A stretch of DNA of 59,913 bases, the filler included, from Dugesia japonica (Eukaryota): NCBI GenBank assembly GCA_001938525.1. It is 6 parts of 6 records of this genome, joined end to end, with 100 filler letters (N's around TTAATTAATTAA, not from the genome) between each part and the next. Parts side by side here need not be neighbours in the genome. Positions count along the whole stretch, not along the records: positions 42,078 to 51,215 come from MQRL01596736.1; 5 more parts are not named here. One strand, 5' to 3'. Position 1 is the first letter of the stretch. Every line of letters begins with the position of its first letter. A model generated the notes under the pieces. The model searched no databases, was not told the origin of the DNA, and saw only the letters and a list, made by a program, of their open reading frames with translations. Shown piece after piece: positions 10,011 through 58,870 of the stretch. The position numbers and the translations under genes are program-made.

Positions 10011-10449
10011 TGGTTACGTGCGGACACGGGCAGAAGTGACGCAATCACCGTTCATGAATCTTTGAGTAAACAACAGTAGGTGTGAATTTTCAAACTTTGA
10101 GGTCAATTTTCACACCTTAATTTAAACAATGGACATTGATACTCAAGGAGTGAATTTTAAAATAAACAATGACGTTAGGTGTGAAAAATCACACTTTAGT
10201 TGACCTCAAAATAATTTTTTGTTTTAATTAACAAGAAAAATTTCATACATTATTTATTTTACTAAAAAATTAAAAGCGTGGCGTATTGAGCATAAAAAAA
10301 TTTTAAATTAATTAATTGATTTTTTTAAATAATGAGTAGGTAGATAGTAGCGCACTGTATCACCCCCCGAGAAGAAATTTTTTCAAGGTCACTGATACAG
10401 TATACTTGATTCTGGTTGGTCTGTGATCTAGTATACTCTATTCTGATTA

Positions 10450-11324: not shown

Positions 11325-11489
11325 GTATGGACAGCGAAATATTTAAGTCTAACATACGAGCATTATACATTGTAATACTGTTCTTCAATAAATATCAAGA
11401 TAACAAAAATAATGTATATATTTGAACGTTTACCGGTCCTCTTTAGGACCACAAAATTTAGGGCTCAAAATATTAAGTTCGATAAAGAA

Positions 11490-15879: not shown

Positions 15880-15961
15880 ACCATGTAATAATTTTTTACA
15901 CACAGGGGGGGTGAAGGGTTACTGAATGTGTGAAGAGGCTGACAGCTACTATCCATCTACT
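15880..15961 (-). mobile_element. Orphan Polinton-type terminus
   Basis: Reverse complement reads AGTAGATGGATAGTAGCTGTCAGCCTCTTCACACATTCAGTAACCC, similar to the terminus at 32260. Confidence 0.6.
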
Positions 15962-16556
15962 CATATTCAACGAATATCATAAAGAAGATATTGAGTGTGA
16001 ATATTGTTTTGGAAAGAAGAAAGATTTGAAGAGAAAATTTATTGACTATATCTATCCTGAGTCTAATAAAAGACAATGTTAATAAATTTATGTTAATTAA
16101 TTTAGTTTGTTATTACATAAATGTTAATTAATTTAGTTTGTTATTACATAAATGTTAATTTATATTTTAATTTATTTATTCTTTATTACTGTATTAAATA
16201 CTTTAAATAAAATTTTTAAAAAAAATTGAAACATTAAAACAAACAAAAAATATTAATATTAAGTCTGCGCGGGGAATTCAAATATTAAGTCTGTCCGGGG
16301 AATTTAAATATGAAGTCTGCCTGAGAAATTCTGAACGGATGACCTTGAAACGCTTTGACCAATCACATCACAGGATACTATATCACTTTGACTTTGAAAA
16401 TATTTTAATCAATCAGAATCCAGTATACTGTATCAGTTTGACCTCGAAAATTTGACCTTCAAATTTTCAACCAACCAGAATCAAGTATACTGTATTAGTG
16501 ACCTTGAAAAGGTTTCTTCTCAGGGGGCTGGTACAGTGCGCTACTATCTACCTGCT

Positions 16557-20457: not shown

Positions 20458-23400
20458 TCTTTGGTAAATCTTCAAAAAACTAATAGTTTGAGACATTATT
20501 TATTTTACTACTAAAACTCTGCTATTTGGAAATAGTTATCTTTAAAAGAACTGATTGGAACTTATTGCCGAATTAACTCACTTTCTATTGGCTAAAAATA
20601 TTAAATAATAATAATTTCTTTATATCCCTCTTCTTAAGAAACTTCTATGTTTTCCACATTTCTTTCTAATCGCAGTCCATTTTCTCCTTGTACCACAAAC
20701 CGTCTTTCCTGAACTCTCTTAATTATTCGATAAGGCCATTCAACTCTGTTTTGACTTTATTTCTTAATTCTATTCTGATGAGTACAAAATCGCTCACTTT
20801 GAATTCTTTATTTGTATTCCCATCTGAAGTGTTTTCTTTAGTTTTATCTGAAACGTCTGATTAATACCATTTTTTCTGCAAATTTTCTTTTCAAAAAAGA
20901 TCTCAGCTGGGCTCTTTCCAGTCGTCTTCTGCTTTGTTGCGTTCATTGTGAATTCTATTTCCGGTAAAAGATCTGCCCATTACGTTGACTTTCTTTCTTG
21001 AAATGTTGCATTAATCAAATCTCTAATTGTCCTGAACTGTCTTTCAATTTGTTCGTTTGAATTATTATGGTAGGGACTCGAAAAGCAAAGTTTAATATCT
21101 AACTTCAGTGAAAACTTTCTCATAACTCTGGATTCAAAAGCTTTTCCACAATCTAGTTTTATTTTTCTTCGACATCCAAATCTCAATATCCACTTTTCAA
21201 AAATAGCTTTTCGTATTGTTTCCTCTTCTTGTCTAGGCAATGGTATAAGAACCAGATATTTACTATACTGGTCGATTATTCTAAGAATGTATTTTTTTTC
21301 GTCCACATGTTTCCCGCATTGGCCTGTGAATATGACTTCAAACAAATTTGTAGCTTCTAATCTCTTTGTCTTCTCTTTAGTTGATGTCATCACTACTTTG
21401 ATCTTCTGACAAATTTCACAACTTCAAACTATCTTCTGTATTTGGCTCCACAAATTCATCGCAATGTATTTGTTTCTCATATATTCGTACACCTTTTCAA
21501 CTCCTGCATGACATAATAATTTATATATTTATTCGATTGTCTTGTGTATTTTTTTCATCCGGAATTTCCATTTTCTTGCTTAAATTTGTTTCCTCAGAAA
21601 TATTTAATTGTTCTTTTTTTTCCTTTTCAATCATGTTCAGTATTCTTGTTTTAATCTTCCCTTTCTTGTGATCTTCACGTGACATTTGAAATTGTACACA
21701 TACCTCGCATCTTGCTCTAGATAACATATCTACATTACTATATTGAATTCCTTTTCTATATTCCAAACTATGTCTAAATTACTCAGATAATTAATCCATG
21801 TCTGGAATTGTGACATAATTGGTTTCTTCCTCGTCATCATGAAGGTTAAAGCTTTATGATCTGTTCTAAGAGTAAATCTTCTACCGTACATGTAATGTTT
21901 GAAATGCATACAGAAATAATAAACAGCCAATAACTCCTTTCGTGTAATGCAATATCTTTTTTCATGACTCGTCATTGAGTGTGATCGAAACGCAACTACT
22001 CTTTCTCTTCCCTTTTTTATCTCTTTGTGACAATACTGATCCAATTGTATCAAAACTGGCATCTGTATCTAATATAAATTCTCAAAGCACAATATTGGTG
22101 CAGTCATTAGAGATTTCTTTAGACCCTCAAAAGTATCGTTTATTTCATCTGTCCATTCTAATTTCTTGTAGCTTGGTCCGGTAAACAACTGCTTTAAGAC
22201 CCTTGATTTTCTTGCGCAGTTTTCTATAAACTTTCTGTAATAAATATATATTCCTAAGAAACGTCGCAGCTTCTTTACACAGTTAGATTTGCCAAATGTT
22301 CTTATTCTTCTATTTTAGACAGGTCAGTTCTAACACCATCTCTGCTAATTATGTGTCCAAGAAATTTGATTTCGCTTTAAAGAAACTTACAATTCTCTGG
22401 ATTAATTCTTAGACCACCCTTCATTATTTCCATCAATACTCTTTCAATTACTTCATAGTGTTGATCTTTATTGTCCGTAAATATCAGTATGTCATCAAGG
22501 TAAACCATGGCTCCATTGATTCNGCCTACCACTTTTGTCATCATCTCTTGAAATGTCCCTAGTGTTGCTGCGATGCCAAATGGGATTCTATTAAAACAAT
22601 ATTACCCATGCTTCATTGAAAACACTGTTTTTTCTTGTGATTCTTCTACGAGCTCTACTCGATAGTAAGCATTTCCCAAATCTATTGAACTGAAATATTT
22701 GGCTTCATCTAACTTGTCCAGCATTTCATCGACATTATGCATAGGAAAGACTTGTCTTTTCATTACTGTTTTTAATTGACTGAAATCCAAACATATTCTT
22801 ATGTCCTTCGTTTTCTTTTTCCAAACACAATTCAATGGGGGTATTCCATTAAGAGTTGCATTTCTGGATAATATTATTCTCGAAAAGGTTTTGTATAGCT
22901 TCTTCAATTTTAGATTCTAAGTTCATTGGTTGCCTGTAAGGTTTTACATTTATTGGTTCACCCTTTGTGATTATTTTGTGTCTTGTTAGATGTGTGCGTC
23001 CTACATTTCAATTATTTGCCATAAAAGCATCTTCTTTACTTCCAATTATTTTCAATAATCGCTGAACCTCTTTAATCTTCTAAATATTTAAGGCTCTTGT
23101 CAATCGCTCTACTTTTTTAATTTGTCTCCTAAATTTCACTTCAATATTGCAAATGTAAATTCCAAATTTTTCATCCATTTTGCTATCGACCTTTTGCATA
23201 AGCTGGTATCCAAAAATCTTCTGTGTATCTATTCCTTCTATCAGATCGGGTCTTACTCTTTCAGCAACTAAGAAAGTAATCTCTTTGCAAACATCATCAA
23301 TTATCACTCCAGTTTTAAATTTTCCAACAATTTCAAGTGTACAACTTGAAATTATTTGTACAACTTGAAATTTATTTGTACAAGTGTACAACTTGCATTA

Positions 23401-24955
23401 TTTGCACAACGCAATCTTTCATCATTGACTTTTAAATGAATTTCTTGTAATTTATTAAAACAACTCAAACTCATAACGTTAATTCTACTGTATCTAAAAG
23501 ACATTTAACTTTATTTCCTTGAATTAATACCGTAACACTTGGTATGCCTTGCAATATATGGTACGAAATATTTATTTTCTGTTCTGCTTCAACTGTTCCA
23601 ATCCATTCTACTTTTCTATCATCCGCAAAATTTTCCCTCTTTAAGAACCTGTATACTTTTTCTGAAACTTCTTTGATTCCTTGAAGATAATCAATTACTT
23701 TATTTAACAATTGATGACTTCAAACAACTCCTCTACTGGTGGAGCTCTGCCTTTTGGGTACTCTCTTTTAGAATCACTTTCATACACTTCATATCCATCA
23801 TTTGTATTGGCATCTTCATCTTCAATCGCATGTACTCTATTATATCGGTTTCTTGATCTTTCCGCAGTCATAAATTTCTCACTTGTTTTTTTCATTTTTA
23901 AATTTGTGTAGCACTCTTCTGCTCTATGTCCATCATAACCGCATCGCTTACACATTACTTCTTGACATAACCTTCTAATATGGCCAACCTTTCCACAGCC
24001 AAAACATTTTGTTGGTTTTTTAGTTGAACAATCTCGACTTATATTTCCTGTCTTATGACAACTCCAGCACTCTACCACCTTTTTTCGTCGGGCAATTTCC
24101 TTTAGTATGACTGATCTTATGACATGACCAACATTCGATATTTTGTTTTTCCTTTCTTTGCTTCACATGTCTATTCACTGTATGATTTTCAGGTTTCTGA
24201 TAATTTCGATTTGTAACTCTCGAGTAACTTCTAACTACATTAACTCGATCTCTGTTTTTCTCTACTCGATCTACTAACGTCATTGTTTCTTCAATTTCTA
24301 CCATATTCTCTCGTTTTCGGACAGTCACTTCTTTATCAACGTTTTTGTTATCTGAACAATATACTAGCATCTTTGTTACCATTTTTTCCTCAGTTAAATC
24401 TTTATTTGTAAATAATCTTTTAACTAAATCTTTTACATTTTTAAAATAAACTTGAATATTTTTATTTCCACTCCTGTAGTTAATAAAATTTTGAAAATCT
24501 TACACAATATCTTTCTCTTTCTCAAATGCTTAAGGTAAACGAGCCTGAAAACCTTCAACCTTTTTCAACGTCTTTGCATATTCTTCCAACAAATCTTCAT
24601 CTAACAAATAATAGACTAATCTCTTCTGTTGTTTCACATGGATGATGTTTATAGCTTCAAAATTCAATTCAAACCACTTGATGAATTTCTCAATATCATC
24701 TCCTCTGCAGAACATTTTCGGCAATAACCTCTCTGTAATAGAATCGATATTTACCGCTGTCAGCATGTTAGGTAAATTTTCAATTGGTAATTCATTTTGC
24801 TAATCAAAACTAATAGTTTTAGACATTATATGTTTTAGTACTACAACTCTGCTATTTGGAAATAATTATCTTTGAAAAAAACAGATTGAAACTTATTGCC
24901 GAATTAACTTACTTTCTATTGGCTAAAAATACTAAATAATAATTATTTCCTTATA
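20458..24955 (-). mobile_element. Full-length, degenerate Ty3/Gypsy LTR retrotransposon (gag-PR-RT-RH-IN)
   Basis: LTRs at 24766-24955 and 20458-20624; ATAAT on both flanks (5-bp TSD, but within TAA-rich sequence); PBS-like TGCTGACAGCGG after the 5' LTR; PPT AAGAAGAGGGA before the 3' LTR; CCHC knuckles, CLLDT protease, IDLGNAYY and YLDD RT, ITRKELLAV/TDHKAL RNase H, rve integrase. Many stops and frameshifts. Confidence 0.95.
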
Positions 24956-28480: not shown

Positions 28481-29332
28481 CAACATTTCGACGAATCAAC
28501 CCTCGTCATTCGACAAAAAGATAAATATGATATAATTTAGTCTATATTATTCAAACAAAGATTTAAGCTATAAAACTTATGGATATAATAAAAATTCAAA
28601 ATTGTTTTTTAAAATTCTTTTGCTAATAAAATTTTAATGAAATTCTCCACATACTTTATATATCACGAAACTTAAAGTAATACTATATCATTGGTTTGCA
28701 TTTACACGCATTACCGCTATTATTATTTTTAAATATTCCTTAATATCTTTAATTATTATTTTTAAAGTCATTATTATGATTGCCCATAAAATTTTTATAG
28801 TTATATGAACAGTAATTTCGCCTGTAAACAAGCTGTATTTTCATGTATATAAAACGATTCTAGTGAATACGTAATTAAACATCGATACATAATAATTTGA
28901 TTTTAAACAGAACAGTATTTTAAAATAATTATAAATCAACATTTTTATTTTGATTCAAAAAACAATTAAAGATTTATATATTTTATGTTACAATTTAACA
29001 ATCATAAGTATAAAAACTCTAAAACGCCATTTTAATATATATTTTTTACTAAATTTTTCCGTCATCTTCAGATACAATATGTAATCCTTTTATAATAAAA
29101 TATGCTTATATATAAAAAATCTGATTATATAATCAATTATGCAATCTCTCCAATAAATCAAATTAATTAAAAACATTCAATAAAGATTTGGGAAGACCAG
29201 TTTGAATATTTATTTTTTGGATCAATTGATCTAATCATCAATGCTCCTAATACCCTTTAAAGTTTCTGCACAAAATTTTAAAACTATTTTTACTAATAAT
29301 TGATGATTTCAATTTATGAAGTGAATTATAAA

Positions 29333-29562
29333 TTCATTTAAAAAAAAGATTCTATCAAAAAATTTTTTATGGATTTTTTGAGATTGATTCGATATTTCGA
29401 CTTTGTCTTCTTCAGGAATTGACTTTTTAAAAATCAATTTCTGACGAAGACAAAGTCGAAATATCGAATCAATCTCAAAATTCAATAAAAAAAATTTTGA
29501 TCGAAGCTTTTATTTTAAATTAATTTTGAAAAACGATCAATGGTTACGTCCAACAATTATTT
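29333..29562. mobile_element. Palindromic (foldback) MITE
   Basis: Arms GAGATTGATTCGATATTTCGACTTTGTCTTC / GAAGACAAAGTCGAAATATCGAATCAATCTC. Related copies at about 738-900, 50757-50930, 53508-53752 and 57970-58075 share TAAAATAAAAGCTTCGATCAAAATTTT. Confidence 0.8.
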
Positions 29563-29757
29563 TTGCAATAATTGCAATTATAGATTATGAATGATTAAAT
29601 ATTTCAAAGATTCTCATTCACATTAAGGATAATCTTTATTTATTTACAAAAATAGGTCAGTAATATATTTCTTGTGAGACAAGTGTAGACGGCATCTATA
29701 ATAAATATAAATTACTTGAAGATTAATTTGATGTTTTAATATATATTTTTAATTACA

Positions 29758-42077: not shown

Positions 42078-42111
<34 letters not shown>

Positions 42112-42817
42112 TATAAAATGAAAGATTGTTGAAAGTTTTTCTGTCAAATTATGAAATAATAATATCACATGAAAAAACTTTAAATAAATTACAATTATTA
42201 TTTATTTTAATTATTAAATTATAATTTCATTTTAGATTCGGAAATTAACAAATGATACCATTGATGAATACAAAGCCAGTATTAGCCGCCAAATTGCTGA
42301 TCTCGATGCTAGAATATTACATTTACAATCACTTAGTTCAAGAGGATCAGTTGATTTCGATGAAAGAATAAAAGAGGTAAAATTTATTTTAATTTTATTG
42401 ATAAAAATTATTTTTATAATTATAATAAATATAGCAGTTTATTTCGAGTAATTATTTATTTAAAACATGTGTGCGTTGTGAATATATTCTCAATTCTTTA
42501 TAGAATATATAAAATGTAATTTAAAATTGTAATAAATTTATACGTTGATTGATCCTTTATACAGAACTTAGCGCACTGTATCACCTCCCGTACTGTACTT
42601 TATCACTTTTCAAAGTGATATAGAATCTCATTGGTCGAAAATCTATGAGCGGGAAATATAAAATTATTTTTAATTTTCGTTTTTTATTTAAATAATGTAT
42701 TGGTTTTAATGAAAATTTTTTGCGGATAATTTGAATTTAATTTTTTTTACAAGAAAATATTTATTTTGTTTTAAATGAATGAATAAAATGTTTTTCTTTT
42801 GAAAATATTTATTTGTT

Positions 42818-43330
42818 TTAATAACATGAAACATTTTTACAGGTAATTATATAATCAAGTGTCAAGAAGTCACGTAGAGAGAATGACATAAATGATTTAC
42901 TTGACCGTTTTCGATTTGCGTCTGTTCCATACCCTATCGGTGCAATACAAATGTGCCTACTGTCTCCATTATAATTTAAAATAGCTTTAATCATTGCTTT
43001 TTTATTATATGTTTCACTAGCACCTTCGATTTTTATATTATTAAATGAAAGAATTACATCTTCAAACAATCAATGAAACTTGTAGTTGCTGGGCACCACT
43101 TCGGTATTATCAGACAAATTTTTTCAATATTTATTAACTACTTCTACTTTGACATACAATAAAGTATCATTCAAATCTAGATATTCCGTTTGTGATCTGT
43201 TTATATAAAACTATCATTTTTGGATTCAGTTATTGAATTCATTGGAAACACATCTTCAAATGCACCATATTTAATTCGCTAGTTTGTTTTTCCAAATACT
43301 TCAATAACATCATCATTGGTAATCAATATT
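42818..43330 (-). pseudogene. Polinton major capsid protein (double jelly-roll), N-terminal relic
   Basis: EYLDLNDTLLYVKVEV...VVPSNYKFH*LFEDVILSFNNIKIEGASETYNKKAMIKAILNY fits the recalled consensus YIDL..T.LYVK...P.NN..HSLF..V.V.LN......Y.YRAYIETLLNY. Confidence 0.75.
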
Positions 43331-43589
43331 TTTTTTGTTATCAACTGTAACATTCATCTTTTCCTGCTACTTATTCAATTTCGGATGTGTTATAAAAGGG
43401 AAAATTTTACAAAGATGAAATCCAGCTATGCTACTACCCATTGACCTTCCAGATAAATCGAATTTTTAAGCTTAACAATGATATTATTAGCATTATTATA
43501 CGGAGGAATAAGTCAAAATCTATTACTCGGTAAAAGTGTATAGAAATTATTATTTTTGTTCATTTTTCTTTGTAGAATTCTTCTTAGTT

Positions 43590-44591
43590 CAATTAACTGA
43601 TTGAGATGCAGATACTCAAATAGGTTTCTCGTATCCATGCCAATTTACACTTAATTATTTATTTTCATTACTCCCATTTGATTTGATAATCTTTTTGATT
43701 CTAAATACGATTGGTTTTTATTGCATCACTTGCAATTCTTGTTTATTAAATTTCCCAACTGTGAAATTATTTTAATTGTCTTTAATCACATACGTTATTG
43801 AATTCTGTTTGGTATTGATTTTTAATATTTGAAAAATTTCATTGCTCCAATTACTATTGAAATTCTTGATGAATGGTGAAGCCGATATCTGTGAGAATCT
43901 AACATGATCACCAACTTTATTTAGGTTTCTTAATTACTTTTGATTGTTGTCTCAAAAACCATAACTTCATTGAATTATCCATTTAATCCCTTGTGACTTC
44001 TATGGTTTTATAACCATCAATTATTTTTTGCTACACATGAATCCAGGTTTTATTACTAGTATGGTCAAAGTACTGTTTCAATGCATCTCTCAATTTTCAA
44101 TTAAATCTTTCAACATATACTGCTTTTTACTGAAAAAATGTAGAATAATGGTTAATGTTGAGATAATATAATATTCTTAACTTTTGAATTGTAGAATTCT
44201 TCACCCATATGAGTTTTTAAATTATCTGGATGTCAATATGTAAACATTTACTTGATTGCGGCTTCTATTTCATTATCTGATTTTGGTTTTACCGGAGTAG
44301 CTCTCGCAAATCTGCTAAATACATTAATACATGTCAAAATGTACTTATATCCCGTATTAATTTTCGAAAAGGGCATCAAATCCATTTGCCATAACTCATC
44401 AATTCCAAATATTTTATGCGGTCTTATCGGAAATATTTTCAACTGTGGTTTGTTCATATTGTATGCTAACTGGTTCGATAACCACATTTTCGATCGCTTT
44501 TGGAATTTTTTGTTGCTTCCCATAAGTTTTCTACTCCTTTGAATTCTGATGGATTTCGTGGATCTGTCAATATCGTTTTGATTCTGTCCAT
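43590..44591 (-). pseudogene. Polinton-type retroviral-like integrase with C-terminal chromodomain-like tail
   Basis: MDRIKTILTDPRNPSEFKGVENL; GIDELWQMDL..FSKINTGYKYILTCINVFSRFA.ATPVKPKS; VGDHVR; NWSNEIF; VNWHGYEKP. Frameshifted. Confidence 0.9.
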
Positions 44592-45958
44592 TACAACAGT
44601 TTGATGTAAAACTGATATAAGATCTTTATAATGATTCCAAAATACTCATTGACTATGTAAAATTTGATAGACTTAATGCTATTAATTCGATTGCTATTAA
44701 TGCCGCTATAAAAATCCCGTTTTGTTTATACATTACTTTACTCATCAATTTCTCATTATTGACATTTAGAAATATTAACAGTGAATTTTTGTGATTTTGT
44801 AATACTGGATTTTTAACTTTGCTTATATTTGTATTACCACAATCAACATTTATGATTATCTCTAGTAAAGTATAAACAACAAATGATTGAAATGATTTTA
44901 AAATTTTCACTATAATTTCTTTTGGATAAATACATATGATAAATAAATACATGAATGTTTTTTGTATATAACTTTATCCATTTTTCATTTTTAAGTTTCT
45001 TTCCTCTCGCTTTCCTTTTCTTTCTAAATATGTTCATTTGATTCTTCGATTATATTTTCTTTATCTGTTTCTTATCTTCAAGTCGTTATTACTCTCGAGT
45101 TTTGAACAACTATTTTGTTGATCAACTAAAACTTTTTGAAAGTTTGTCATTGTATAAATAGATAATTAATTCAATTGTTTATACACTGTGATTCCATTCG
45201 GGATGAAAATATCAGTTCCCACTCTAGGTTTGTTTGGGCATTGTTATGTAAAGTTATGTAACATATTTGAATAAATCCATAAAACCTGTTAATTATTTTG
45301 GTTATTATTTGATAGAAAATCAAAAGCAGTTTAATCTCTTGGATTTTTAAATATAACCAAGTATTGCACATTCAATTTAAATTCTCTGTGACTTTCTCCT
45401 TGATGAAATAAATTTTTAGTAATTAAAACCACAGTCACCTTACAGTGATATCATTGTGAGTAAATTGTTAAAGTAATTTTCTTTGTTAGCTTCTTGATAT
45501 AGATCATTAACAATCACATCACCATTAGTCAATGTCTTGCACCAAGTTTCATTGAATTCGTTTATAAGTTTCATTTTTATATCACAGAATTCAGATTGAG
45601 TTAATCTATGCTCTTTATCAGCTCCTCTATGCTGGTATATTTTATTAAATCNTGATTTAAATAAATTTGATTTCAAAATCTGACACACAAACAATGTTTT
45701 CATGATTGGAAATATTTTAATTTAGATATATGTTGATGTTAGCTTTATATTTCATTAAAAGGTTATTACAAATAATTATTGTATAATTATTAAAGTACAT
45801 TTGTTATAATAAGGCGTGTTAGTAAAATTTTGATATTACTTAAATATATAAACTATTTTAAAGTATTCATTAATTTTTTAAGTAAAAACTATATTTACAA
45901 TATTTTACTCTTTGTTACCTAATATATTCGTATAATTTTATAAATATTTGTGTTAAAT

Positions 45959-47243
45959 ATGGCTTTGATATCGATAGATATTAGGAAATTAGTCATTCAA
46001 AGATTGAAAGAGGGTTTGTCTCAGAGGAAAGTTGCAATTCAACTTAATATTTCAAGGCTTACTGTAACACATATTATACTCAAGACGAAACAACAGAAAT
46101 TTATTTAAAAGTAGATGTAAGCCGAAAAATACACAAAGATCTGAAAGATCACTTATTCGTATATCAATGAAAACGGCATGTCATCTTTTGATTGATTGGA
46201 AAACAAGTCAAACTTCCTCAGTTAGTACTATCAAGCGTATTCTGAGAAAGTACGGCTTGTTTAGACGGATTGCAGCGAAGAAGCCCTTATTAAATGGGCG
46301 ACATATCAAGAATCGCTTAAAGTGGTACAAAGACTATGGAAAACTGCTTCTTTCTTTTTTGAATAACGCCATATTTACTGAAGAATGTAGGATAGAACTN
46401 TTCTCCAGAAGAAGAGAGTACGTCTGCAGACAACAACGATCCCGATATAATCCGAAATATACCAAGAAAACTGTGAAATTCGGAGGTAAGAGTTTGGTGG
46501 TTTGAGTCGCAATCAAAGAAGATGGCTCCGTAGTTCTTATAAGGTGTTTAGATCGGATTAATTCTGTTGCCTATATAGACGTATTAAATAAAGGTTTGCT
46601 GCCAATATATGAGGCACAGAATATATTTCAGCAGGACGGAGCTCCATGCCATAAATCAAGATTTTTGTCTTCATTTTTGGAAAAATCAAAATTATGTGTG
46701 CTCAGTGATTGACAGGTCCAGTAACCAGATCTGAATATAATTGAGCCATTGTCGGCAGATCTGAAAGCCAGGGTTGTGAGCTGTAGGCCGGTAAATATTG
46801 AGACACTTTTGAGGAATTCTGAGGAGCAGTTGATGATGATTCCGATATCTAAAATTAAAAATCTGTATTCAAACATGCTAAGAAGGATCCAAGAAGTAAT
46901 CAAAAATAAAGGCATGAATACAAGTTACTAATTTCGAGTAACTGAATTTTTTATGAGGTATGCCGTTCAATAAAATGTGTTAGGTCAATTGAAATGTTAA
47001 TAAAAAAATGTTTCATGGTCTTACATTCTTGTATTCAAATTGACTTAAAAATTCATGTTTTTGAAAAAATCAGTTTTTCTACATTTACAAAAGTTATACT
47101 TTGGAAATATTTGATTGGAAACATGTACTTCAACATATTCTNNNNNNNNNNNNNNNNNNNNNNNNNNNNNNNNNNNNNNNNNNNNNNNNNNNNNNNNNNN
47201 NNNNNNNNNNNNNNGGGTGGCTCAAAACATTTGGACGACATTG
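45959..47243 (+). mobile_element. Tc1-family (DD34E) transposon, pseudogenised, nested in the Polinton relic
   Basis: HTH GLSQRKVAIQLNISRLTV; AAKKPLL; TVKFGGKSLVV; FQQDGAPCHKS; PDLNIIE; ORF remnant 45959-46931; right TIR-like GGGTGGCTCAAAACATTTGGACGACATTG followed by TA. Left TIR not found. Confidence 0.9.
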
Positions 47244-49498
47244 TATATATTGTATTGTATTATGTTTAATGAAATTGTTTAATGTACGTAATCAGACTGA
47301 ACCATTTACATTATCATTGATATCTTAATAATACTAGATTTGAATAAATTACCCGAGAAAATATGAATGATTGAGCAATACGAATACAATGCGAGTGCAA
47401 TACTAATACAGTTGATGACCAATACGAATGCAACTAAAAAAAATTTTAAGAATATTATATTGTGGTATTTGAAAAAAAATTAACAACACGAAAAAAATCT
47501 ACTTCATAAAAAATAAAATATCAAATTATCAAATGTTAAAATTTATTTCCTAAAACTAAAAATTCAAACTTAAAATTTATAACCAAAACTTTTTTCAAAG
47601 GTAAACTTTACAAAATTAAAATTTATTAAATTAAAATATTTTTGAAAAGACAAATTAATTTACTTAAAATTTAATTTTAAATTAAAATTTGAAATTATAA
47701 TAAAAAAATAAATAATACAAATGCAATAAAATAATAATTCAAATTACCTTATTATTGTTCGTGTAATTAAAACAAATAAAGAATTTTCCTCAAAAACGTT
47801 TGAATTAAAATTTCCCGCGGAAAATTTTTCAGCCAATGAAATTCTATATCACTTTGAAGAGTGAGCGAATTTTTTTCTTAAAAGTGCGATGATCATTGAC
47901 AATTTTTCCTTAATAAAGTGATTCTTTGATAAACATTCTAAGGTTTTAGTGATTTCTGCAGAAAGTAAGTGCAACATAGACTTGACATTTAGCGAAAACT
48001 GGTTTAATCAAATGCGCACTAACTTTATCAAAACGATTAGAGTTGGACCTTATTAATAGTCATGGGAATGCCAAGATTACTGAAAAATTTTAAGCAAATA
48101 AATTAAGATATACAGGCTTAAGATTTAAAACCTTAAAATTTATAAAATATTTTGTGTAACTGAAGTGTTCAAGAGTGAGTCAGTCAATGTGTGAATTGGG
48201 TAATCATATTAAAGATATTTGAAAATAATTGCTTTTAAAATTTATTTAAACTTTCATGTGAATTTACAAATTTTAAATTGCTAAATTATTTTTGTCAGAA
48301 ATGTTGAATTAAATAAGTACGTTTTAATTAAATCACGTTGCAATTATTTCTAAAACAATTATATGACATTCTTATTTATCTCATAAAATGTTCCTTAATA
48401 GTTAAAACCATTTTTTTAACAATTTCAAAAAGATTATTTTGATTCATATTTTTTACTTTTTTTGAAAAATTCAAATTTATATAAAGTATTATAAATAATT
48501 ATCAACCAATTAAATTTGTTGAATATCAACAGTTAAACAAAGTTTACGAGAAGTGTTTTATTAATGCTGAAAAAGAATAAATTCAGTGACTATTTTTCAC
48601 ATACAAATTTTTGTTTTTCTACATGTTTGTTTCAAAGAAAATGAAAACACACACTCCTTAATATTTTTGCCCAAATTGAAAATGGGATATATTAAAAATA
48701 GTTTATTGAAGAGAATTTGTTTTCAAATTGACAACGATGATGTTATATTATATATTAGTAGAAATTTATTTACAAACGTTTGTTTTATTAATTATTTATT
48801 CATCATTATCTTTTCTTATTGTCTGCTAATTAAATTTCCTTATCTGTATAATTTTTGAAATAATTAATCCAATTTTTAATTCATTTATGTTTCAATTTAA
48901 ATTTTTATTATTATTGTAAATCCGTTATCATAAAAATCGTTGTTGTATTTACCTGTTTAACTATAAATAGGGATTATAATTATTTGAAAAATTAAAATGA
49001 ATTAAAGTAAAATAGATTTCATTAAAATAAAGGTTGCCTGTATCTAGTATTGCTTAAATCTTTGTTTGAATAATCTCATTTTTCATTTTGTCTAATTATG
49101 ACTGTTGATTCGTTGAAATATATCACAATAAAGTTTCATTTTAAATGGCATTATTTATTTTTTATAACAATTATTATTATTATATTAATAATAATTATTA
49201 TTAAAAAAATTTTATTTATATAAACTTTATAAATTTGCTATTTTATTATTTAGAAAAAAACATTTGAAAGGTATGTATTAATGTAGATTTTCATTAGACC
49301 TATTTTCATGANTAAATATTTTATTATATCTGAATTATGGTTATAAAAAGCTGAGATATATTTCTGAATTACTATTAAAATAACTACTAAGGTTATGTTT
49401 ATTATTCAGTTTTCATCGATTTTAAAATTTTTCGTACTTTGAAAGTTCTTATGATATTAAATATTTTTTTTTATTGAATCATTTTTTTTGTAAAAAAA

Positions 49499-49743
49499 AG
49501 TAGTCACGTACATCAGCACTGTACCACCTCGTCCACCCGGAGAAGAAAATGCTTTATTCAGTTATCCAGAAGGTTGCAATCCGATTTAATAATTTTTTTC
49601 CTTCTTATTGTGTATGTGTGTTGAATTTTTATCGAGCGATGAGTCATTTATTGCGTCATGCTGAGTAGTGTGTAAGTAGCTGATTATTCAGCTGCTTACT
49701 TACTTCATTGTAAGAAGGTAGTATAGTGCTGACGTATCTAATT
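49499..49743. mobile_element. About 245-bp MITE with Polinton-like ends
   Basis: AGTAGTCACGTACATCAGCACTGTACCACCT versus inverted AGGTAGTATAGTGCTGACGTATCTAATT. Confidence 0.55.
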
Positions 49744-50756
49744 ATTCAAAAACTCATTCTTGAACATGAACAACCTACTTAGTTTTACTAATTTGAATAT
49801 TGCTATAAATTATTAACGAAATCCAAAAAAATATTATTCCTGGGTCAATTTTAGCTGCTTTCTAATAAAATTCCATTTGTTTTATTTAAATTTCAAGAAA
49901 TTTATGAAAGAGTGATGCAAGTGAATTGTGTACATTGGTGTACAGCAAGCATGTTTACTTTTGAATAGGGATTGGCAAACAACCGAAAAGTAGAATCAAG
50001 TTGGTTAAATATTATACCGTTTCCAATAGTTTCTATAAATTGTAAAATATTCATTGCAGCTAAGCAAAATAAATTCGCGAAAATATTCCGTTTAATTGTA
50101 CTAAAATCTCTCTTGAATATGGAGAAATTTATTAAGATTTATAAATATTTTAATCATTAAATGCTTGCAATTTATTAAATATTATTAGTTATTTATTATA
50201 TATATTATTTTAGTTGCTTTTTAAAAAAGATTATATTTTTATATCATATATGAATAAAATTCATTATATTAATTATTTATATTATACTTGAGAATATAAT
50301 TGCTGAAGTTTTAAAAAACTATAGATATACTGCAAAAATACATAATATGCCTCTGAAATTTTGTATATCGCATTATTATTATTATTTATAACTATTATAA
50401 TTTTTTGTCACAATAAAATTGCATTTATTTTCACGCATTTATTAATTTAATAGTAGTATTGCTAGGATTATGTGAGTTTTACCTTTTCATTTAATCATGC
50501 ATTGGTTTTGATTATTTAATTAGTTGATTTTTGCAGTTAATGGGTTATTATTGATGAAATTACTAGTTGATAATAATGGTCACCCGTCAAAATAGGCCCA
50601 TCAAAAATTTTATTGTTATTAATAAATTGTTTTATTATATTATGTATTATTATTATAATCATTATTATTATTTTTAAGATATTTTGTATTGGTCTTTTTT
50701 GCTTGGGATTATTATAATTAATAATAATAATGATTTTACAATTACAATTATTGTGA

Positions 50757-50930
50757 GAATAATTATTGGACATAACCATTGATCGTTTTACAGCATTCAT
50801 TTAAAATAAAAGCTTCGATCAAAATTTTGTTGTTTTTATTTGGTATTTGATAACAATTGTTGTTATAACAACAATTGTTATCAAATACCAAAAAAAGAAC
50901 AAAATTTTGATCGAGGCTATTATTTTGAAT
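50757..50930. mobile_element. Palindromic MITE copy with perfect spacer-less core
   Basis: Perfect palindrome at 50839-50892 inside the family arms. Confidence 0.75.
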
Positions 50931-51318
50931 AATAATGATAATATATAATATTGTTGGGGTGAAACACTTGAGATTGAAAAATAAACCAGCAATTAGGTCC
51001 CACTGAAATTCGAAAGAATGTCATAAGAAAGAAAACGAAGAATACAAACCACAGAAGGAGTAAAATTAGTTACGGTAAGGAATAATTGAAGAAAAAGATC
51101 GTGATTACGGAACTAAAGAAGGAGAGATGACTCGTACAAATAGAAGGAAATGTTGAAAAAACACAAACGGACCGAAAGAACAAAAAAAGGACAATTGATA
51201 ACAAATAAAAGTAATNNNNNNNNNNNNNNNNNNNNNNNNNNNNNNNNNNNNNNNNNNNNTTAATTAATTAANNNNNNNNNNNNNNNNNNNNNNNNNNNNN
51301 NNNNNNNNNNNNNNNTCA

Positions 51319-51720
51319 ATGATGAGAAATAGTTTTTATACAGTTTTACCGAGTAATGATAGTTTTTTTGTTCATCAAAATAATACTGATAGTAGTTCCG
51401 TTGATGAGCTTCTAAATTCGATTTATTTGAAAGCCACATGGCGTATTTCACCTTTGTATATTCCTCCAGTCATTTGTATGGTAAAGCAAAGATTGAACAT
51501 GAAATATTTATACCAATTATAAAGGAAATGTATATTCTTAATAACAACAAAGATAAAGTATTGCTCGTAGAATAATATTCTACTGACAAAAATAAAGGTC
51601 GTACTGATGGAGCTATAATAATAAAGGATAATACGAAAACTTTTTATAATAATACTAATATTGGTTTAGAAAGCACTATAAAGTTTTATATTATTGAAAA
51701 TGCGGAACGATTTTAAATTG
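51319..51720 (+). pseudogene. Polinton minor capsid (penton) N-terminal relic
   Basis: SFYTVLPSNDSFFVHQNNTDSSSVDELLNSIYLKATW fits the recalled penton start FY.TLPSNSS...FP.NT.S.F...L...I.L.G.W. Confidence 0.7.
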
Positions 51721-53359
51721 ATAATCAGAAAATAAAAAAAAACTGATACTTATAACCGTTTGTTTGAGAAATCATTTTTATTCGCTTTCAATAATTTCAT
51801 GACTCAACGGAAAAAATAAAAACTACATTTTCATATTTCAATACAACTAAACATAAGTTTTTAATTTGAGGATGAATTGTAAATAAATGGAATATTAAAA
51901 TTCAAACGTTTCTCACGTTTTTTTTCATTAAGATTAAAAATTTCCAAAGGTTCATAAGTACAGGTTTAAGTGATAGATCTACAAACATTAATAATTAAAA
52001 NNNNNNNNNNNNNNNNNNNNNNNNNNNNNNNGCAATACGAAAATAGTCGAAGAACTAATATGTATTCATATTCACAAATGTGGCGCCTAATGTATTAAAT
52101 TAGAATGTTCAAATCATAGAAGTATTGTGTGTAGTTTGCAAAAAATATTAATTTATATAATTATAATATAAATAAACTCGTCTTTGACAACAAATAATTT
52201 TTTATTTCAAAAAATTATTTAACAAGCAAAGATTAAAACTGATGTTCTTTTATTTTCAATAATAAATAACAATAATACATAATTTTTTAAGTTTTAAAAC
52301 AATTAAAAAAATAGATCTATTATAATTATAATATAAATTAAATAAATGATAATTTTTATTCATGTTTTTCAATCAAGTTTTTTTTCGAAGTTATTCATTT
52401 CTCAATTGTTATTTTATCGATTATAGCCAAATAGAATAGAATAGTAAAACAACTATAGCAACTATTTTCATTAACTAATTTTCTTTATGAAATTGTTATT
52501 ACATTCTTTTGTTAATGATTTTTATGTGGATAAATATTTAATTGATTTTATTTTAGTCTCAAGTCCGAGGTTTACTTTGAATATTTGTAATCAAATTTTT
52601 AATTGACAACTTTAATTATATTTCTTCGTGTTTTAAAATTGTAACAAAAAAAACAAAAGAAAAAAAATAAATGTTTTAATTTGTATTGAAATTTGAAAAA
52701 TTTTGCAATTTGAAATAAAAAATAAAATAGTAAAATTGCATTCTGATGAAAGAGAAATTTTTAAAAATAATCACAAAAAAAAGAAAACTGAAAATACTCA
52801 AACATGTAATTTATTTGTCGAATTTTCATTTTTGGAGGAAAATATTTGTTTTATTAAATATTTACTGAAATGAAAAATTTTAACGTAAACAAATAAAATC
52901 CGATTTATGAATAGAAATAGAAATAATGTGTGTTTGTGTGTGCGTGTTTGAATAACTTTTTACATACATAAATCACAAAACGATTTCTAATTAATTATTG
53001 ATCAGATATTAATAACAGTTTTACATAAAAGAACGTTCTGTAAAAGTAGTAGAAATATGAAGGGAATGGAAATTGATTAATTGTTCGTCAACTATAGTTT
53101 TTATTTAATAATGTAAAAGCGCTTCTAAACTCGTAAATCTTTTAAAATGTAATTTTATAAACATGTATAAAAACGGTGCCCTTAATGTAATTAACAATTT
53201 TATCGATATAAGTTATATTTCAATTTAATGAAATTTTCTATTGAGGATCACAAAACATTTAGATAATTGCTATTCAATTCACTACACTTGAAAATGAAGA
53301 GGGAAATAAAATAGGATTTTTTAATCTTAAAAGGTAATAAGTATAATAATAATAATAAT

Positions 53360-53507: not shown

Positions 53508-53752
53508 CGAGAATAATTGTTGAACGTAACCATTAATCGTTTTTTAAAATTCATTTAGAATAAAAGCTTCGATCAAAATTTTTTTATTGTTTTTTCGAGA
53601 TTGATTCGATATTTCGACTTTTCCATCGTCAGGAATTGACTTTTTAGTCAAAAAGTCAATTCCTGGTAAAGGTAAAGTCAAAATAACGAATCAATTTCCA
53701 AAAAACAATAAAAAAAATTTTTTTGATCGAAGCTTTTATTTTAAATGAATAA
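53508..53752. mobile_element. Palindromic MITE copy
   Basis: CAGGAATTGACTTTT...AAAAGTCAATTCCTG core with the shared outer arms. Confidence 0.8.
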
Positions 53753-53789: not shown

Positions 53790-56585
53790 TTTAATTAATT
53801 TTTTTTGGATATATTCTATAAGGGTTTCTTAATTCTTCCTTTAATATATTTATGCAGATTACATTGTTTACATTTTGATAGTTGTTCTCTTATAATTTTG
53901 TCCATACAAGGCTAATAATACTCATTTTATATAACTCCTATTGTTTTCTCTACTCCTGAATACCCCAATAACTTATGATATTTCTAAATGACATCTTTTC
54001 TTTTATGTCTGGACACAATAAAAAGATATTTCTCATACTTTTCTAAATATAACATCTCACCTTGTATTCGTAGTTCTTTCTTTTTCTCCCAATACGATTT
54101 TATTTCCTTATTTATCTTTACGTCACGAAATTTTTTCTCGTTTCTTTCAAGAGCCTGTAGTATTATTCGTATATTTATATTTTTTCTTTGTTCCCATTCG
54201 TCTTCCTGTTATATTTTATTTATAACACTTTCTGATTGTATACTTTGTTCTTCATCTTTGTCTGTTGTTTTGTATATTTTAACATTTCTTTTTTTGGATC
54301 ATTGTGTTTTATTAAACACTGTTCGCAATCTAATAAACGTGAAAATGCATCAGCATTAATATGTTCATCACCTTTTCTTAATTATACGATCATATTAAAG
54401 ATTTTCAATTCAGCTTTTCCCATGCAGTATTGCGACGTGTTTGGGCGATTCTAATTTATTTTAATCCTTGGTGATCCTTTTGTAACACAGTTTGTGATCC
54501 CATTAAATAGTGCTTAAAACTTGAGGACAACCACATTTATGGCCAAAAGCTCTTTACTTGTAATACAGTACTGTCTCTGTTTTTGTTAATGTCTTCAGTG
54601 CATAGTATAATACTCGTTCCTCACCATTTTTTACTTTGAGAAAGTAGTGTTAATTGCATTATGAGAAGCATTTGTATCCAATATACATTTTCAATCTTTT
54701 GTTGACAAAGTTAATACTGGTGGTTTCTTCAGCGTTTTACGTAACTTGTAAAAATATTCTTTATTTTCATCTGTCCACTGAAATTTGTTTTCTTTCTTTA
54801 GCATTGAACTGAGAGGTTCTGATAAATTTGCATAATTTTTGATGAATTGCCTATACTATTTACAAAACCTTAAAAATGTTTGAAGTTCTTTTCGACATTG
54901 AGGAATCTCCCATTTTTGAATTGCCATTATTTTATCAGGATCTGTTGCGATTCCTTTTTTAGTTAATATATGTCCGAGATATTGTATTTTTTCCTTCAAG
55001 AATTTACATTTATTTGATAATAATTTAAGTCCAGCTTCTCTTATTCTTCTTAATATTTGATCCAGTCTTTTATTGTGCTCTTCTACAGTTTTACCAAATA
55101 TTAAAACATCTTCTAATTATATTACGCGCGTTTTTCAATTTTTATTTTGCAATACAATATTCATCAGCCGCTGCTGCTGAGCATAATCCAAACTGCATTC
55201 TGGTAAATTCATGTTGTTTAAACCTTGTGCTGAATTCTGTTTTACCCTGATCTTGTTTAGCTATTGGAACTTGGTGATATCCACTTGAAAGGTCTAGAGT
55301 TAAAAATAGTTAGCTCCAGTAATACTGTTCTTTGATGATGGTATTGGAAATATTGGTCGGTTTGTTTTAGCATTTAGTGCCCTGTAGCCAACACACATAC
55401 GGTTATCACCGTGTCATCAGAAATTTTCTAATCTGAGTGGTCTATTTTTCACCAGTTTCACTTACATCTATGTTTTCAGATACTGCAATTCTATAATATT
55501 GGTTATCATTAAAAGTTTAATGAGCCTCTGTTTTTCCAAATACCGTATTACAACTCTTTAACACGGTCGGTGTTAGTATTTTATTTAGTCAGGTAGAACT
55601 GTTGTTGAAATAAATGGAATCTTAACATTTTGTATTATTATTCCATCATTAGATGCATCCACCATGGTTTCGTATTTTTCATACTTCTTAATCTAATATA
55701 TATATATATATGTGGAAATATATTTGGCATAATACCAAATATGTGTGCGGTCATTACAAGTCCAATTGACATATTTAATTGTATCTTCCCCAAACATTCT
55801 TTTGTTGTACCATTTGCGCGTGTTACTTTTGTCATAGATTTAAAAGTTCTTATAGCAGGGTTTTTTTTACAGATACGCTCGGCTAATTTCTGGCTTATAA
55901 CATTGAAATCAGCGCCCGTGTCAAACATTGTTTTAACTGATATCCCTGCAACCTGACATTCAACAATTGCTTTATTTCTTGCTTTTTCTGGCTTTGATAC
56001 TGATATTAGTGTTAGTTTATATTTTTAAGTGTTTGTCTTGACCATTCTTTATTTCTTTCGATAAAGTTATCTTCGAGTGACGGTTTAAACGTTTTAATTA
56101 ATAATTAATAATCTTTTTCTTCTGGTTCCTCATTGATTATGGATTCTGTTTGCTCTTCTTCTTCTTAAGTATCTTAAATTCCTTGCTTTTTTGCAGTTTC
56201 TTTTAAGATGGTCACCCCCACACTTGAAACATTTTGTGATATTGCAGTCTCTAGCTATATGGCCTTTTTATCACATGTAAAGTATGTTCTTGTTTCTTGT
56301 CTACCCACGGTTATCCATTTTTGTGGTTTTTCCGAACTATGTGCATTATTATTCCTATTTTTATTAAACATATTTGGTGCACGAGATTTGTGATTGTGTC
56401 TTTTTAGTTCGGTAATTTCATTCTTTAGCTTTCCTATTTCAATTTTTAAATTCTTTATAGTTTCATTTTCCTGGCATATATTACATAATAAATTTTAATT
56501 TGTTTCGTAGTCATCTGTCATCTATTCATCTTTTATACTTTCTGCTGCCTCTTTCAATGAATTTGGTTCGAATATTCTTCTTTTG
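53790..56585 (-). mobile_element. Degenerate Ty3/Gypsy relic (gag-PR-RT-RH-partial IN), third family
   Basis: Knuckle TCDKKGHIARDC at about 56243-56278; protease MFDTGADFNVIS; LDLSSGYHQVP; YLGHIL; DTNASHNAI; YCITSKELLA. No LTRs found. Confidence 0.85.
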
Positions 56586-57758: not shown

Positions 57759-58870
57759 AATAAATTAATATGGATTGAAGAGACTTTTAATGTTTGATAT
57801 AATTTAATAAAAAAATATAATTTAAATGTATTGTTTTTAATTATAACATGAATTTGAATTGTTATATCGTTCGACGGGTAAACTGTCATTATCAGACAAA
57901 AATTAAAAAAATGAGTTTATTCAGTCTTTATTATTTAAACAAAGATTAATGCGATTATACTGCATATAAGATTCATTTAAAATAAAAGCTTCAATGAAAA
58001 TTTTTGTTTTTTTTATTGATATTTGATAAAAATTCGATATTTCAACTAAGTCTTCTACAGAAAATGACTTTTTAATTTATTAAACAGAACAAGTAATTGA
58101 AAATATCTGTGTAAATAAAGAAAAGGCGAGAAAATTAACAAAAGAATGTTCAATCTCAAACATTTCCTTGTCAGCAAAGATCTGGTACTTCCATCGAAAT
58201 GGTGTTCTGCCTCCTGGTCAATAAAATGAAATTTAAATTGTAAAAAAAAGAATAATGTAAATAAATTATGTTAATATAATTAAAATGTTAACATAATGTA
58301 AGTAAAATACGTATTATATAATTAATTTGTAAAAATAATGTAAAGAATTTAAAATAACAGCAAAATCATGAAAAAAATTTTTAAAGTTTAAAAGGTAGAA
58401 TCTGACTTAGCAAAGCAATGGACAATATTCGAAACCAAAATTATTCCAAACAAAACAGTTTGATGATCAACTCAATCAAAGCCTCAAAGAAAAAATCGAT
58501 TTTATCATAAAAGACATTTGATGGCGAGTTCCACGCAGAACTTTTTCTTTGTTTTTGTAAAAAAATTGTTACATTTAATAAATAATTTATTTAATATTTA
58601 TTCTAATAAAAGTAATTTTCTTTGAATAAATTTATTTTTACTAAACTTTTATTAGTTAATTTTAATTTTAATTTAATTATTTAATTATTATAAATTACAT
58701 TTATTTTAGGATTGTTTTTTTTAATTAGTAATTCTTCATGTTATAATTCTTCATGAATATAAATTCTTAATTTTTTAATTTTAACAATTTTTCAACAAAT
58801 TATTTTTCTCTATAATAATATTTTATTAAAATTACTGTTTTACAACTATATAATTTTTTAATTTTATATT

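Follow-up and report, generated by a model that had tools for sequence, protein, structure and literature searches.

Polintons or Mavericks ('polintoviruses') are on record from planarians, with Polinton-1_SM and Polinton-2_SM in Schmidtea mediterranea (PMC4028283, PMC8097293) and capsid-coding members listed for a planarian in Table S1 of PMC4028283. Adintoviruses and MELD viruses combine PolB, integrase, FtsK, penton, hexon and adenain genes, and pX-like C-termini have been described in adintoviruses (PMC8502044); an HNH form of pPolB2 Polintons has been reported for nematodes and oomycetes (PMC10748475). Herpesvirus TBP mimics, such as KSHV ORF24, are an earlier example of a TBP-like viral protein serving as a late-gene switch (PMC12529657, PMC7498053). 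For Polintons, the accessible literature holds only a figure label: in the available text of PMC8502044, 'TBP' appears solely in the Fig. 5 legend (MELD viruses, section on non-animal datasets), while the wording of supplementary Fig. S2 does not include it, and subscription papers or Repbase may hold a prior mention.

We analysed a window of 59,913 nt from Dugesia japonica (the whole stretch of DNA, filler included) and found at 42569–47864 the relic of an element whose family resembles these systems as far as the accessible parts of their descriptions go. Like Polintons/Mavericks, the family has an rve integrase, a packaging ATPase, PX one gene from PY and, in sister copies, a protease and pPolB; its long terminal repeats begin AGTAG, and the majority of its copies have decayed into fossils, as they have in vertebrates. 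The gene set is also that of adintoviruses and MELD viruses, and adintoviruses share the small pX-like accessory gene and the endogenised, broken relics (PMC8502044), while the endonuclease VII/HNH-type domain beside PF03175 in the family polymerase recalls the pPolB2-class Polintons with HNH (PMC10748475). Unlike Polintons/Mavericks, the relic measures 5.3 kb, without polymerase, protease or Gly-rich gene; family ends read AGTAGG or AGTAGA rather than (AGT)2, the S. mediterranea elements being compared by description, not sequence; and the family has a TBP-like gene, whereas TBP and TATA receive 0 mentions in the accessible text of PMC8097293, PMC10748475 and PMC11161782.

By itself the relic is an ordinary fossil, broken capsid-coding Polintons being common and known for planarians, and it is unsurprising because such elements are already on record (PMC4028283 Table S1). 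The value of the locus lies in the TBP-encoding family behind it.

A dead Polinton with an internally deleted gene module

The segment 42569–47864 is an old, internally deleted Polinton/Maverick in which the ATPase, integrase, penton and major capsid genes are broken. Its gene remnants (packaging ATPase, small basic protein, rve integrase, penton start and part of the capsid gene) all lie on the minus strand, and the features of the locus are as follows.

42569..42852, no strand: left terminal-inverted-repeat remnant, from repeat comparison, AGTAG-terminus matches and other copies
42848..43275, minus: 5' part of the major capsid gene (predicted double jelly-roll), residues ~20–163 of ~406, in two frames with 2 stops, the rest deleted
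43276..43551, minus: 5' part of the minor capsid (penton/PX) gene, first ~90 codons, ending at a ~1.15-kb deletion
43592..44609, minus: rve (DDE) integrase with C-terminal chromodomain-like tail, in three frames with 9 stops in the aligned parts
44656..44964, minus: small basic gene, conserved in the ATPase–integrase interval, with a C-terminal KQ.GGF.AALL-type motif
44965..45174, minus: Lys/Arg-rich remnant between ATPase and small basic gene, from six-frame translation, with partial DNA matches to sister copies
45175..45720, minus: A32/FtsK-type packaging ATPase, in two frames with 4 stops, the match beginning after the Walker A region
45785..47243, plus: nested decayed Tc1/mariner transposon just upstream of the ATPase, from Pfam transposase domains and comparison of its ends
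47245..47864, no strand: right terminal-inverted-repeat remnant, outer end lost, junction shared with copy L293
47868..48230, no strand: dispersed repeat unrelated to the Polinton, starting where the right arm stops

The analysis shows which genes the relic has and in what order, as well as its deletions, stops and terminal repeats. Its ATPase matches an intact homologue at tblastn E 7e-40, and that homologue scores above the cut-off for Pox_A32 (4.8e-6). The predicted minus-strand integrase with a chromodomain-like tail was confirmed at 44609–43592 by an rve match (E 2e-5, below the curated Pfam cut-off) and by 39–55% identity to an intact homologue that itself matches rve (1.3e-12) and Chromo (6.5e-4). 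The small basic gene is 53% identical to a sister ORF (E 8e-29) and has no stop across the aligned 88 codons; one sister copy gives a weak Adeno_PX match (E 0.072). It is this copy's best candidate for a pX/core-like protein, and the names PW and GasderminX-like serve as leads only. The ORF remnants at 44650–45700, unassigned in the original prediction, are the packaging ATPase and the small basic gene.

Pfam had no match to the capsid, penton, Gly-rich or small basic ORFs, as fragments or intact, and their identities come from homologue searches, folding and a published alignment. The capsid fragment, the N-terminal 40% of the protein, aligns with residues 20–163 of the 406-aa homologue P0034 (tblastn E 1.4e-44, 60–81% identity), which upholds the predicted capsid N-terminus; the match, which lies within 42818–43330, is strong. 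The full-length P0034 model (pLDDT 88) retrieved iridovirus, PBCV-1 and Sputnik capsids in Foldseek (best E 6.8e-16); by this modelled fold, the fragment is a predicted double-jelly-roll major capsid protein.

The penton stands one gene upstream of the capsid in sister copies, where its conserved frame reads FYTLLPSN...LEGQWVVA and agrees by eye with the published PX rows (FY.TLPSN...G.W.V.L). A penton protein search gave no informative names among its matches; its Atlas neighbours include a Preplasmiviricota cluster. Relative to copies L097 and L106, the relic lacks 1144 and 1147 nt between penton and capsid, a deletion that took the larger part of the penton along with the genuine Gly-rich gene. 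The family Gly-rich ORF has no match in the relic and retrieved only unnamed clusters in the Atlas search. A peptide GRSMGSSIAGF..IFPF had been proposed at about 43400–43460 as a possible pVII-like core protein. The peptide is there, yet it is the start of penton/PX read off-frame: across 21 sister segments, stops interrupt its frame in 20 and the penton frame in 11. We therefore rejected a pVII-like gene at this position, where no open, conserved Gly-rich frame exists. Integrase and capsid genes had likewise been described as consecutive; both are present, but the family has the penton and Gly-rich genes between them.

None of the relic's ATPase, integrase, penton and capsid proteins can be encoded any more, and it is a real Polinton/Maverick but a dead copy. 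Domestication or continued function of a virus-derived gene cluster at this locus, as the core-protein reading implies, is extremely improbable: the small basic ORF is stop-free over its aligned 88 codons, against which stand stops and frame changes in the ATPase, integrase, penton and capsid genes, the off-frame Gly-rich peptide and the relic's long terminal branch.

Sister copies and the history of the relic

Sister copies hold the genes in the order ATPase, small basic, integrase, penton, Gly-rich, capsid, protease, ORF and pPolB, with a divergently oriented TBP-like gene before the ATPase; this set lies between long AGTAG-ended repeats in elements of ~13–18 kb. Searches with the element and its capsid protein returned about 10^4 first-look candidates in the genome. 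These candidates and the complete gene set of the sister copies bear out the Polinton/adintovirus identity of the relic, the capsid assignment and the spread of a capsid-coding lineage in this host.

The protein-primed family B polymerase has no match in the relic, from which it was deleted. Sister copies with the same module (L099/L100, L101/L102, L108 and L173) have pPolB; an intact homologue matches PF03175 at E 9e-28. The adenovirus-like cysteine protease, absent from the relic, follows the capsid gene in sister copies (weak Peptidase_C5 match, E 0.041). Replication of the family would be protein-primed from the termini, integration would proceed through rve, and the ATPase would package DNA into a double-jelly-roll capsid.

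The relic was likely inserted by the integrase of its own family. After insertion, one loss ran from mid-capsid to the terminal repeat, taking protease and polymerase, and another removed the 1.15 kb between penton and capsid; a Tc1 landed at the ATPase promoter. Taken together with the inferred family mechanism, we hold with high confidence that 42569–47864 is a decayed Polinton with a nested Tc1.

The short form might instead belong to a mobile non-autonomous family spread in trans by full elements, as opposed to one copy decayed in place. In its favour are the partial survival of both terminal regions, the frequency of deleted AGTAG-ended derivatives in this genome and the repeat-to-ATPase junction that L293 shares. 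Against this, neither a second penton–capsid junction nor a second capsid–repeat junction was found when 40 candidates were scored per search, other copies are only 67–78% identical to the relic, and both extreme ends are lost. We regard spread in trans as highly improbable, and decay in place as the probable history of this copy.

Terminal inverted repeats

The enclosing inverted repeats of the original prediction are real (local alignment score 79, whereas none of 300 shuffles exceeded 59), with arms longer than described, at about 42569–42852 and 47245–47864. Their core (42603–42662 and 47805–47864) spans 60 nt at 82% identity. The first base of the left arm corresponds to roughly base 14 of a terminus of the AGTAG type. 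This arm lacks ~230 bp present in copy L061, and a deletion has fused it to what is left of the capsid gene; the inner end of the right arm aligns colinearly with the junction of repeat and ATPase in L293. No target-site duplication (6 bp in Polintons) is readable because both outer ends of the relic are gone.

The AGTAG-terminus pattern had 114 exact matches, with varied outer flanks, versus 0 for a control pattern, and a co-oriented AGTAG end lies 120–600 bp outward at 9 of 50 arm loci. Family genes occur at 8 of the 50 arm loci (7 contigs) versus 0 of 24 control loci. The arm follows capsid, Gly-rich or polymerase genes in the expected orientation in L290, L050 and L294, directly after pPolB in L294, and precedes the ATPase as expected in L065. 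Two loci count against a terminal-repeat reading, L272 with a TBP piece outside the arm and L313 with a polymerase match >5 kb from it. A search for the arm repeat at both tips of the longest sister elements gave no convincing match; the sister element with both ends readable, L099/L100, has a different AGTAG terminus type.

Two other origins were weighed. An unrelated MITE pair lost ground to the L293 junction, the AGTAG ends and the gene-bearing arm loci. A separate non-autonomous, AGTAG-ended fold-back element might flank genuine Polinton genes by chance, as would suit the short gene-less fold-back elements at L048, L270 and L275, the 42 of 50 arm loci without a family gene and the longest sister elements without this arm at their ends; it is quite improbable given that the arm-to-ATPase junction recurs in L293, that arms stand correctly oriented beside genes in L290, L050, L294 and L065, and that genes occur at 0 of 24 control loci, the gene-less arm loci being mostly short contigs. 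By comparison with these copies, the inverted repeats are read as remnants of long AGTAG-ended Polinton termini, and the pair belongs to the Polinton.

A TBP-like gene in the family

Comparison of 16 genomic loci showed a ~150-aa TBP-fold gene among Polinton genes at 11 of them. Metagenomic searches with this gene yielded 80 loci, 40 of which carry other Polinton genes; a scan of viral_contigs gave 0 loci. The protein exceeds the Pfam cut-off for PF00352, and its model (pLDDT 95) matches TBP in Foldseek (E 2.4e-9). With this domain and a predicted two-repeat saddle fold (TM about 0.7), the sister-copy gene belongs to the TBP family. It shares the fold of cellular TBP (PF00352) but differs in its length, shortened first repeat, lack of an N-terminal extension and 21–26% identity to solved TBPs, and so extends the family by a divergent branch. 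Reading frames are open in 68 of 80 loci, with a median dN/dS of 0.26 over 95 pairs. Three Phe positions and the second repeat's EPE.F stirrup are invariant; in the alignment, the stirrup region of the first repeat is without the Phe that cellular TBP numbering would place there. No other transcription machinery was seen in TBP-encoding elements.

The relic has no TBP gene, nor has L293, its nearest ATPase relative (support 0.87), at that side, and the gene is absent despite enough flank at 3 of the 16 compared loci. In the relic's sub-branch the gene may therefore have disappeared or changed position ahead of insertion; the node joining the relic and L293 to TBP-bearing copies has support of 0.17.

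A candidate promoter motif for the virion genes

In the TBP-bearing family, TATAAACA precedes the virion genes (ATPase, small basic, penton and capsid), with a median position of about −37 to −54 before the ATPase, small basic and capsid genes, a TATA-like distance; before the capsid gene it falls inside coding sequence. It occurs before 0 of 74 TBP genes, which often lie behind an ordinary TATA box, and is mostly missing from protease and Gly-rich genes. The motif is also absent before 70 ORFs of a TBP-less lineage, a control drawn from one other lineage, and all counts come from related sequences.

We propose that the TBP-like gene would be read early by host machinery through its TATA box and that its product would then recognise TATAAACA as a variant box, turning on the virion module; on these sequence patterns, the protein likely switches on the capsid genes. 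The fuller reading, that the relic comes from a widespread Polinton clade whose own minimal TBP reads a private TATAAACA box before packaging and capsid genes, is one that we favour by a little.

The TBP-like gene might alternatively be cargo with a different function, acting as a decoy towards the partners of host TBP or binding the replication origin, with TATAAACA read by a host forkhead-type factor. The motif contains the core RTAAACA, which we take to be a forkhead site, the first TBP repeat is shortened and without its stirrup Phe, and some family copies have no TBP gene. The TATA-like distance, the 0 of 74 TBP genes and 70 TBP-less ORFs without the motif, and the invariant EPE.F stirrup speak against cargo, which we consider rather unlikely though still a serious contender.

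If the TBP-like protein does act through TATAAACA, a 13–18-kb integrating element would make its own early-to-late switch as herpesviruses and giant viruses do, and this would be direct regulatory evidence for a genuine virion phase. Known viral TBP mimics differ in setting, the family gene sitting in an integrating element of ~13–18 kb (PMC12529657, PMC7498053). A TBP homologue under purifying selection in many elements, together with a fixed promoter motif ahead of the virion genes, makes it testable how Polintons time these genes and whether they form particles.

Nested transposon and neighbouring repeat

The dispersed repeat at 47868–48230 has Polinton genes at 0 of its 24 loci. The element nested upstream of the ATPase is a Tc1/mariner transposon by its paired HTH and DDE transposase domains (HTH_Tnp_Tc3_2 7.3e-10, HTH_SB 5.7e-6, DDE_3 4e-4), terminal repeats and TA target; its left outer end is lost, an assembly gap falls inside its right end and TA follows that end. 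This Tc1, at about 45785–47243, and the ~1.15-kb deletion fusing penton to capsid are features beyond the original prediction.

A decayed Polinton with recognizable virion genes

The relic sits in contig G000:C596736 (window 42078-51215) of an AT-rich, fragmented 854-Mb genome. Gene remnants were mapped by six-frame translation and tblastn against sister copies from the same genome and an intact metagenomic relative, giving the following identity, order and decay of its parts:

Gene remnants and neighbouring repeats of the window copy
45720-45175, minus: packaging ATPase (tblastn E 7e-40; two frames, 4 stops)
44964-44656, minus: small basic gene (six-frame translation and tblastn)
44609-43592, minus: integrase (tblastn E 2e-71; three frames, 9 stops)
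43551-43276, minus: penton start (six-frame translation and tblastn)
43275-42848, minus: capsid remnant (tblastn)
~45785-47243, plus: decayed Tc1 transposase (one clear end, then TA)
from 47868: a different repeat

The predicted inverted repeat is confirmed (82% over 60 nt; local score 79 versus a maximum of 59 and mean of 40.5 in 300 shuffles), and the minus-strand ATPase, integrase, penton and capsid remnants support the Polinton reading. The integrase remnant matched Pfam rve at 2e-5, under the cut-off; intact homologues matched Pox_A32 (4.8e-6), rve (1.3e-12) and Chromo (6.5e-4). No Pfam model matches the capsid protein. Using a sister capsid fragment as query, we recovered 51 full-length proteins of ~406 aa; the window remnant corresponds to residues 20-163 of the full-length homologue P0034 (E 1.4e-44), bearing out the predicted capsid N-terminus. 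A model built from 50 of the 51 sequences (pLDDT 88) matches double-jelly-roll capsids of iridovirus, PBCV-1, Sputnik and mavirus (best E 6.8e-16, TM 0.64).

The window copy is dead and of an already known kind. Polintons combine protein-primed replication, rve integration, ATPase packaging and protease maturation. It would have inserted as a longer element and later lost its outermost ends together with two blocks from its interior. PMC8532177 describes PIWI/piRNA silencing of Polintons in a planarian.

Penton and glycine-rich genes

The original prediction stood for the repeat, integrase and capsid but not for a Gly-rich, possibly pVII-like peptide (GRSMGSSIAGF, 43400-43460). Overlapping it in another frame is FYTLLPSN...LEGQWVVA, which by eye agrees with the PX/penton rows of a published Polinton alignment (supplement file 3 of PMC4028283). 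We rejected the pVII reading because the peptide is off-frame to the penton start and its frame is stopped in 20/21 sister segments; the penton frame is stopped in 11/21. The true Gly-rich gene of sister copies lies between penton and capsid, and a 1144-1147 nt deletion removed it here with most of the penton. In the window copy, the small basic gene may be the stronger candidate for a core protein, a lead drawn from a sister ORF's weak match to Adeno_PX (E 0.072) and from the pX-like tails reported in PMC8502044. A second penton N-terminal remnant, 74% identical to 43446-43551, occurs at 51328-51731, where the next stretch begins.

Termini

The first 17-21 nt of the left arm are identical to bases 14-34 of an AGTAG terminus. 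The terminus pattern, which came from another element in the window and contains the left-arm bases by design, had 114 exact matches (control pattern, 0), and outer flanks varied sharply at the 30 terminus loci seen. Locus L061 carries the AGTAG terminus and, ~250 bp inward, the arm itself. The arm was compared at 50 loci, two contigs being counted twice: an AGTAG end in the same orientation lies 120-600 bp outward at 9, and family genes are present at 8 (on 7 contigs), versus 0/24 loci of an unrelated repeat. The arm-to-ATPase junction recurs in the TBP-less locus L293; in the window copy, Tc1 inserted within it. Against a terminal-repeat reading of the arms, part of a TBP gene falls beyond the arm in L272, L313 has its family match far from the arm, and the only long sister element that can be read at both ends carries a different AGTAG end type. 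In vertebrate Mavericks the termini read (AGT)2 or (AG)3 and are accompanied by a 6-bp duplication (PMC8097293); the window copy lacks both outer ends, where such a duplication would lie. Further AGTAG-type Polinton termini lie in other stretches at 15961 (-), 32260 (+) and 34444 (-).

Family and related Polintons

First-look searches of the genome gave 9297 candidates for the element (40 scored, mostly 67-78% identical) and 11757 for the capsid protein (102 scored, nearly all carrying stops). Sister contigs share the order TBP-like gene (divergent), then ATPase, small basic, integrase, penton, Gly-rich, capsid, protease, ORF and pPolB. Next to PF03175, the family polymerase has an endonuclease VII-type domain and in this domain content recalls the HNH-bearing pPolB2 of PMC10748475. 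The genome also holds a second, TBP-less Polinton lineage (L296-L312), whose polymerase is 24-28% identical to that of the family and whose gene set differs; its capsid was unmatched by the profile of the window copy's family. At 10335-16556 lies another internally deleted Polinton, 6.2 kb long, with inverted ends of AGTAG type (92% over 87 nt); within it, 10703-11174 keeps the remnant of a polymerase C-terminus, 73% identical to family pPolB. One sister copy has the ATPase 5' part tandemly duplicated (L107:2855-3742). Four Schmidtea Polintons appear in Table S1 of PMC4028283.

A TBP-like gene and its candidate motif

The window copy lacks the TBP-like gene. Of 16 genomic loci compared, 11 have it next to the ATPase, 3 are without it and 2 are too short. 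The ATPase tree pairs the window copy with L293 (support 0.87) and links this pair to TBP-bearing copies with support of just 0.17. The ORF scores above the PF00352 cut-off, and its model (pLDDT 95, from 32/33 homologues) matches TBP structures (E 2.4e-9, TM 0.71). Median dN/dS is 0.26 (95 non-independent pairs). In the 50% library, 70 representatives match the profile at E<=1e-30; a scan of viral_contigs for the gene gave no loci.

We kept the best 80 of 161 metagenomic relatives; the ORF is open in 68 of these 80, and 40 of the loci also contain genes for ATPase, integrase, capsid, protease or polymerase; most of the remainder are short contigs. The position of the TBP-like gene varies: ahead of the ATPase, behind the protease or at another place. 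One TBP-bearing metagenomic Polinton locus, L191, encodes, besides two penton-like genes in tandem, a ubiquitin-conjugating E2 enzyme (222-719, minus; PF00179, E 1.7e-12).

The motif TATAAACA was sought within 90 nt before genes in genomic and metagenomic sets, with shuffles as control. It precedes the ATPase (7/15 genomic, 15/29 metagenomic; shuffles 0.6, 0.4), small basic gene (12/16, 9/9), capsid (14/24, 7/10) and penton (7/23, 2/10), just 1/15 and 0/8 proteases, 0/22 and 1/6 Gly-rich genes, and no TBP gene (0/10, 0/64). A canonical TATA precedes 26/64 metagenomic TBP genes (shuffles 7.0) and just 3/10 genomic ones (1.8). Among the ORFs of 8 TBP-bearing metagenomic loci, 24/118 are preceded by TATAAACA, compared with 0/70 in 12 contigs from the TBP-less lineage. 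The window copy keeps the motif at 45183, 44730 and 43205 (minus strand). Because the sequences are related, the capsid site lies within coding DNA and the TBP-less control is one lineage, these counts are only suggestive of a tie to virion genes of the TBP-bearing family. The lineage is a variant marked by the TBP-like gene and matching motif; the TBP-like protein would serve as a late-gene switch acting on TATAAACA.

In the text searched, PMC8502044 names TBP solely in the legend of its Fig. 5, on MELD viruses, and the searched supplement text had no match to the label; the searched text of PMC10748475, PMC11161782 and PMC8097293 had none to TBP or TATA. Among openly readable papers, we found none describing a Polinton TBP.

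Other features in the window

LTR-retrotransposon remnants lie at 20980-24499 and 55638-56024 (rve integrase, 6.5e-12; zinc-knuckle gag; aspartyl protease). Long low-complexity host-type exons (1916-5222, minus) had no Pfam match, and the exon at 7410-7781 (minus) belongs to the TPD52 family (E 7.7e-13). Members of a small family of palindromic repeats recur at 50737-50930, 29327-29582, 53509-53750 and 57965-58075.
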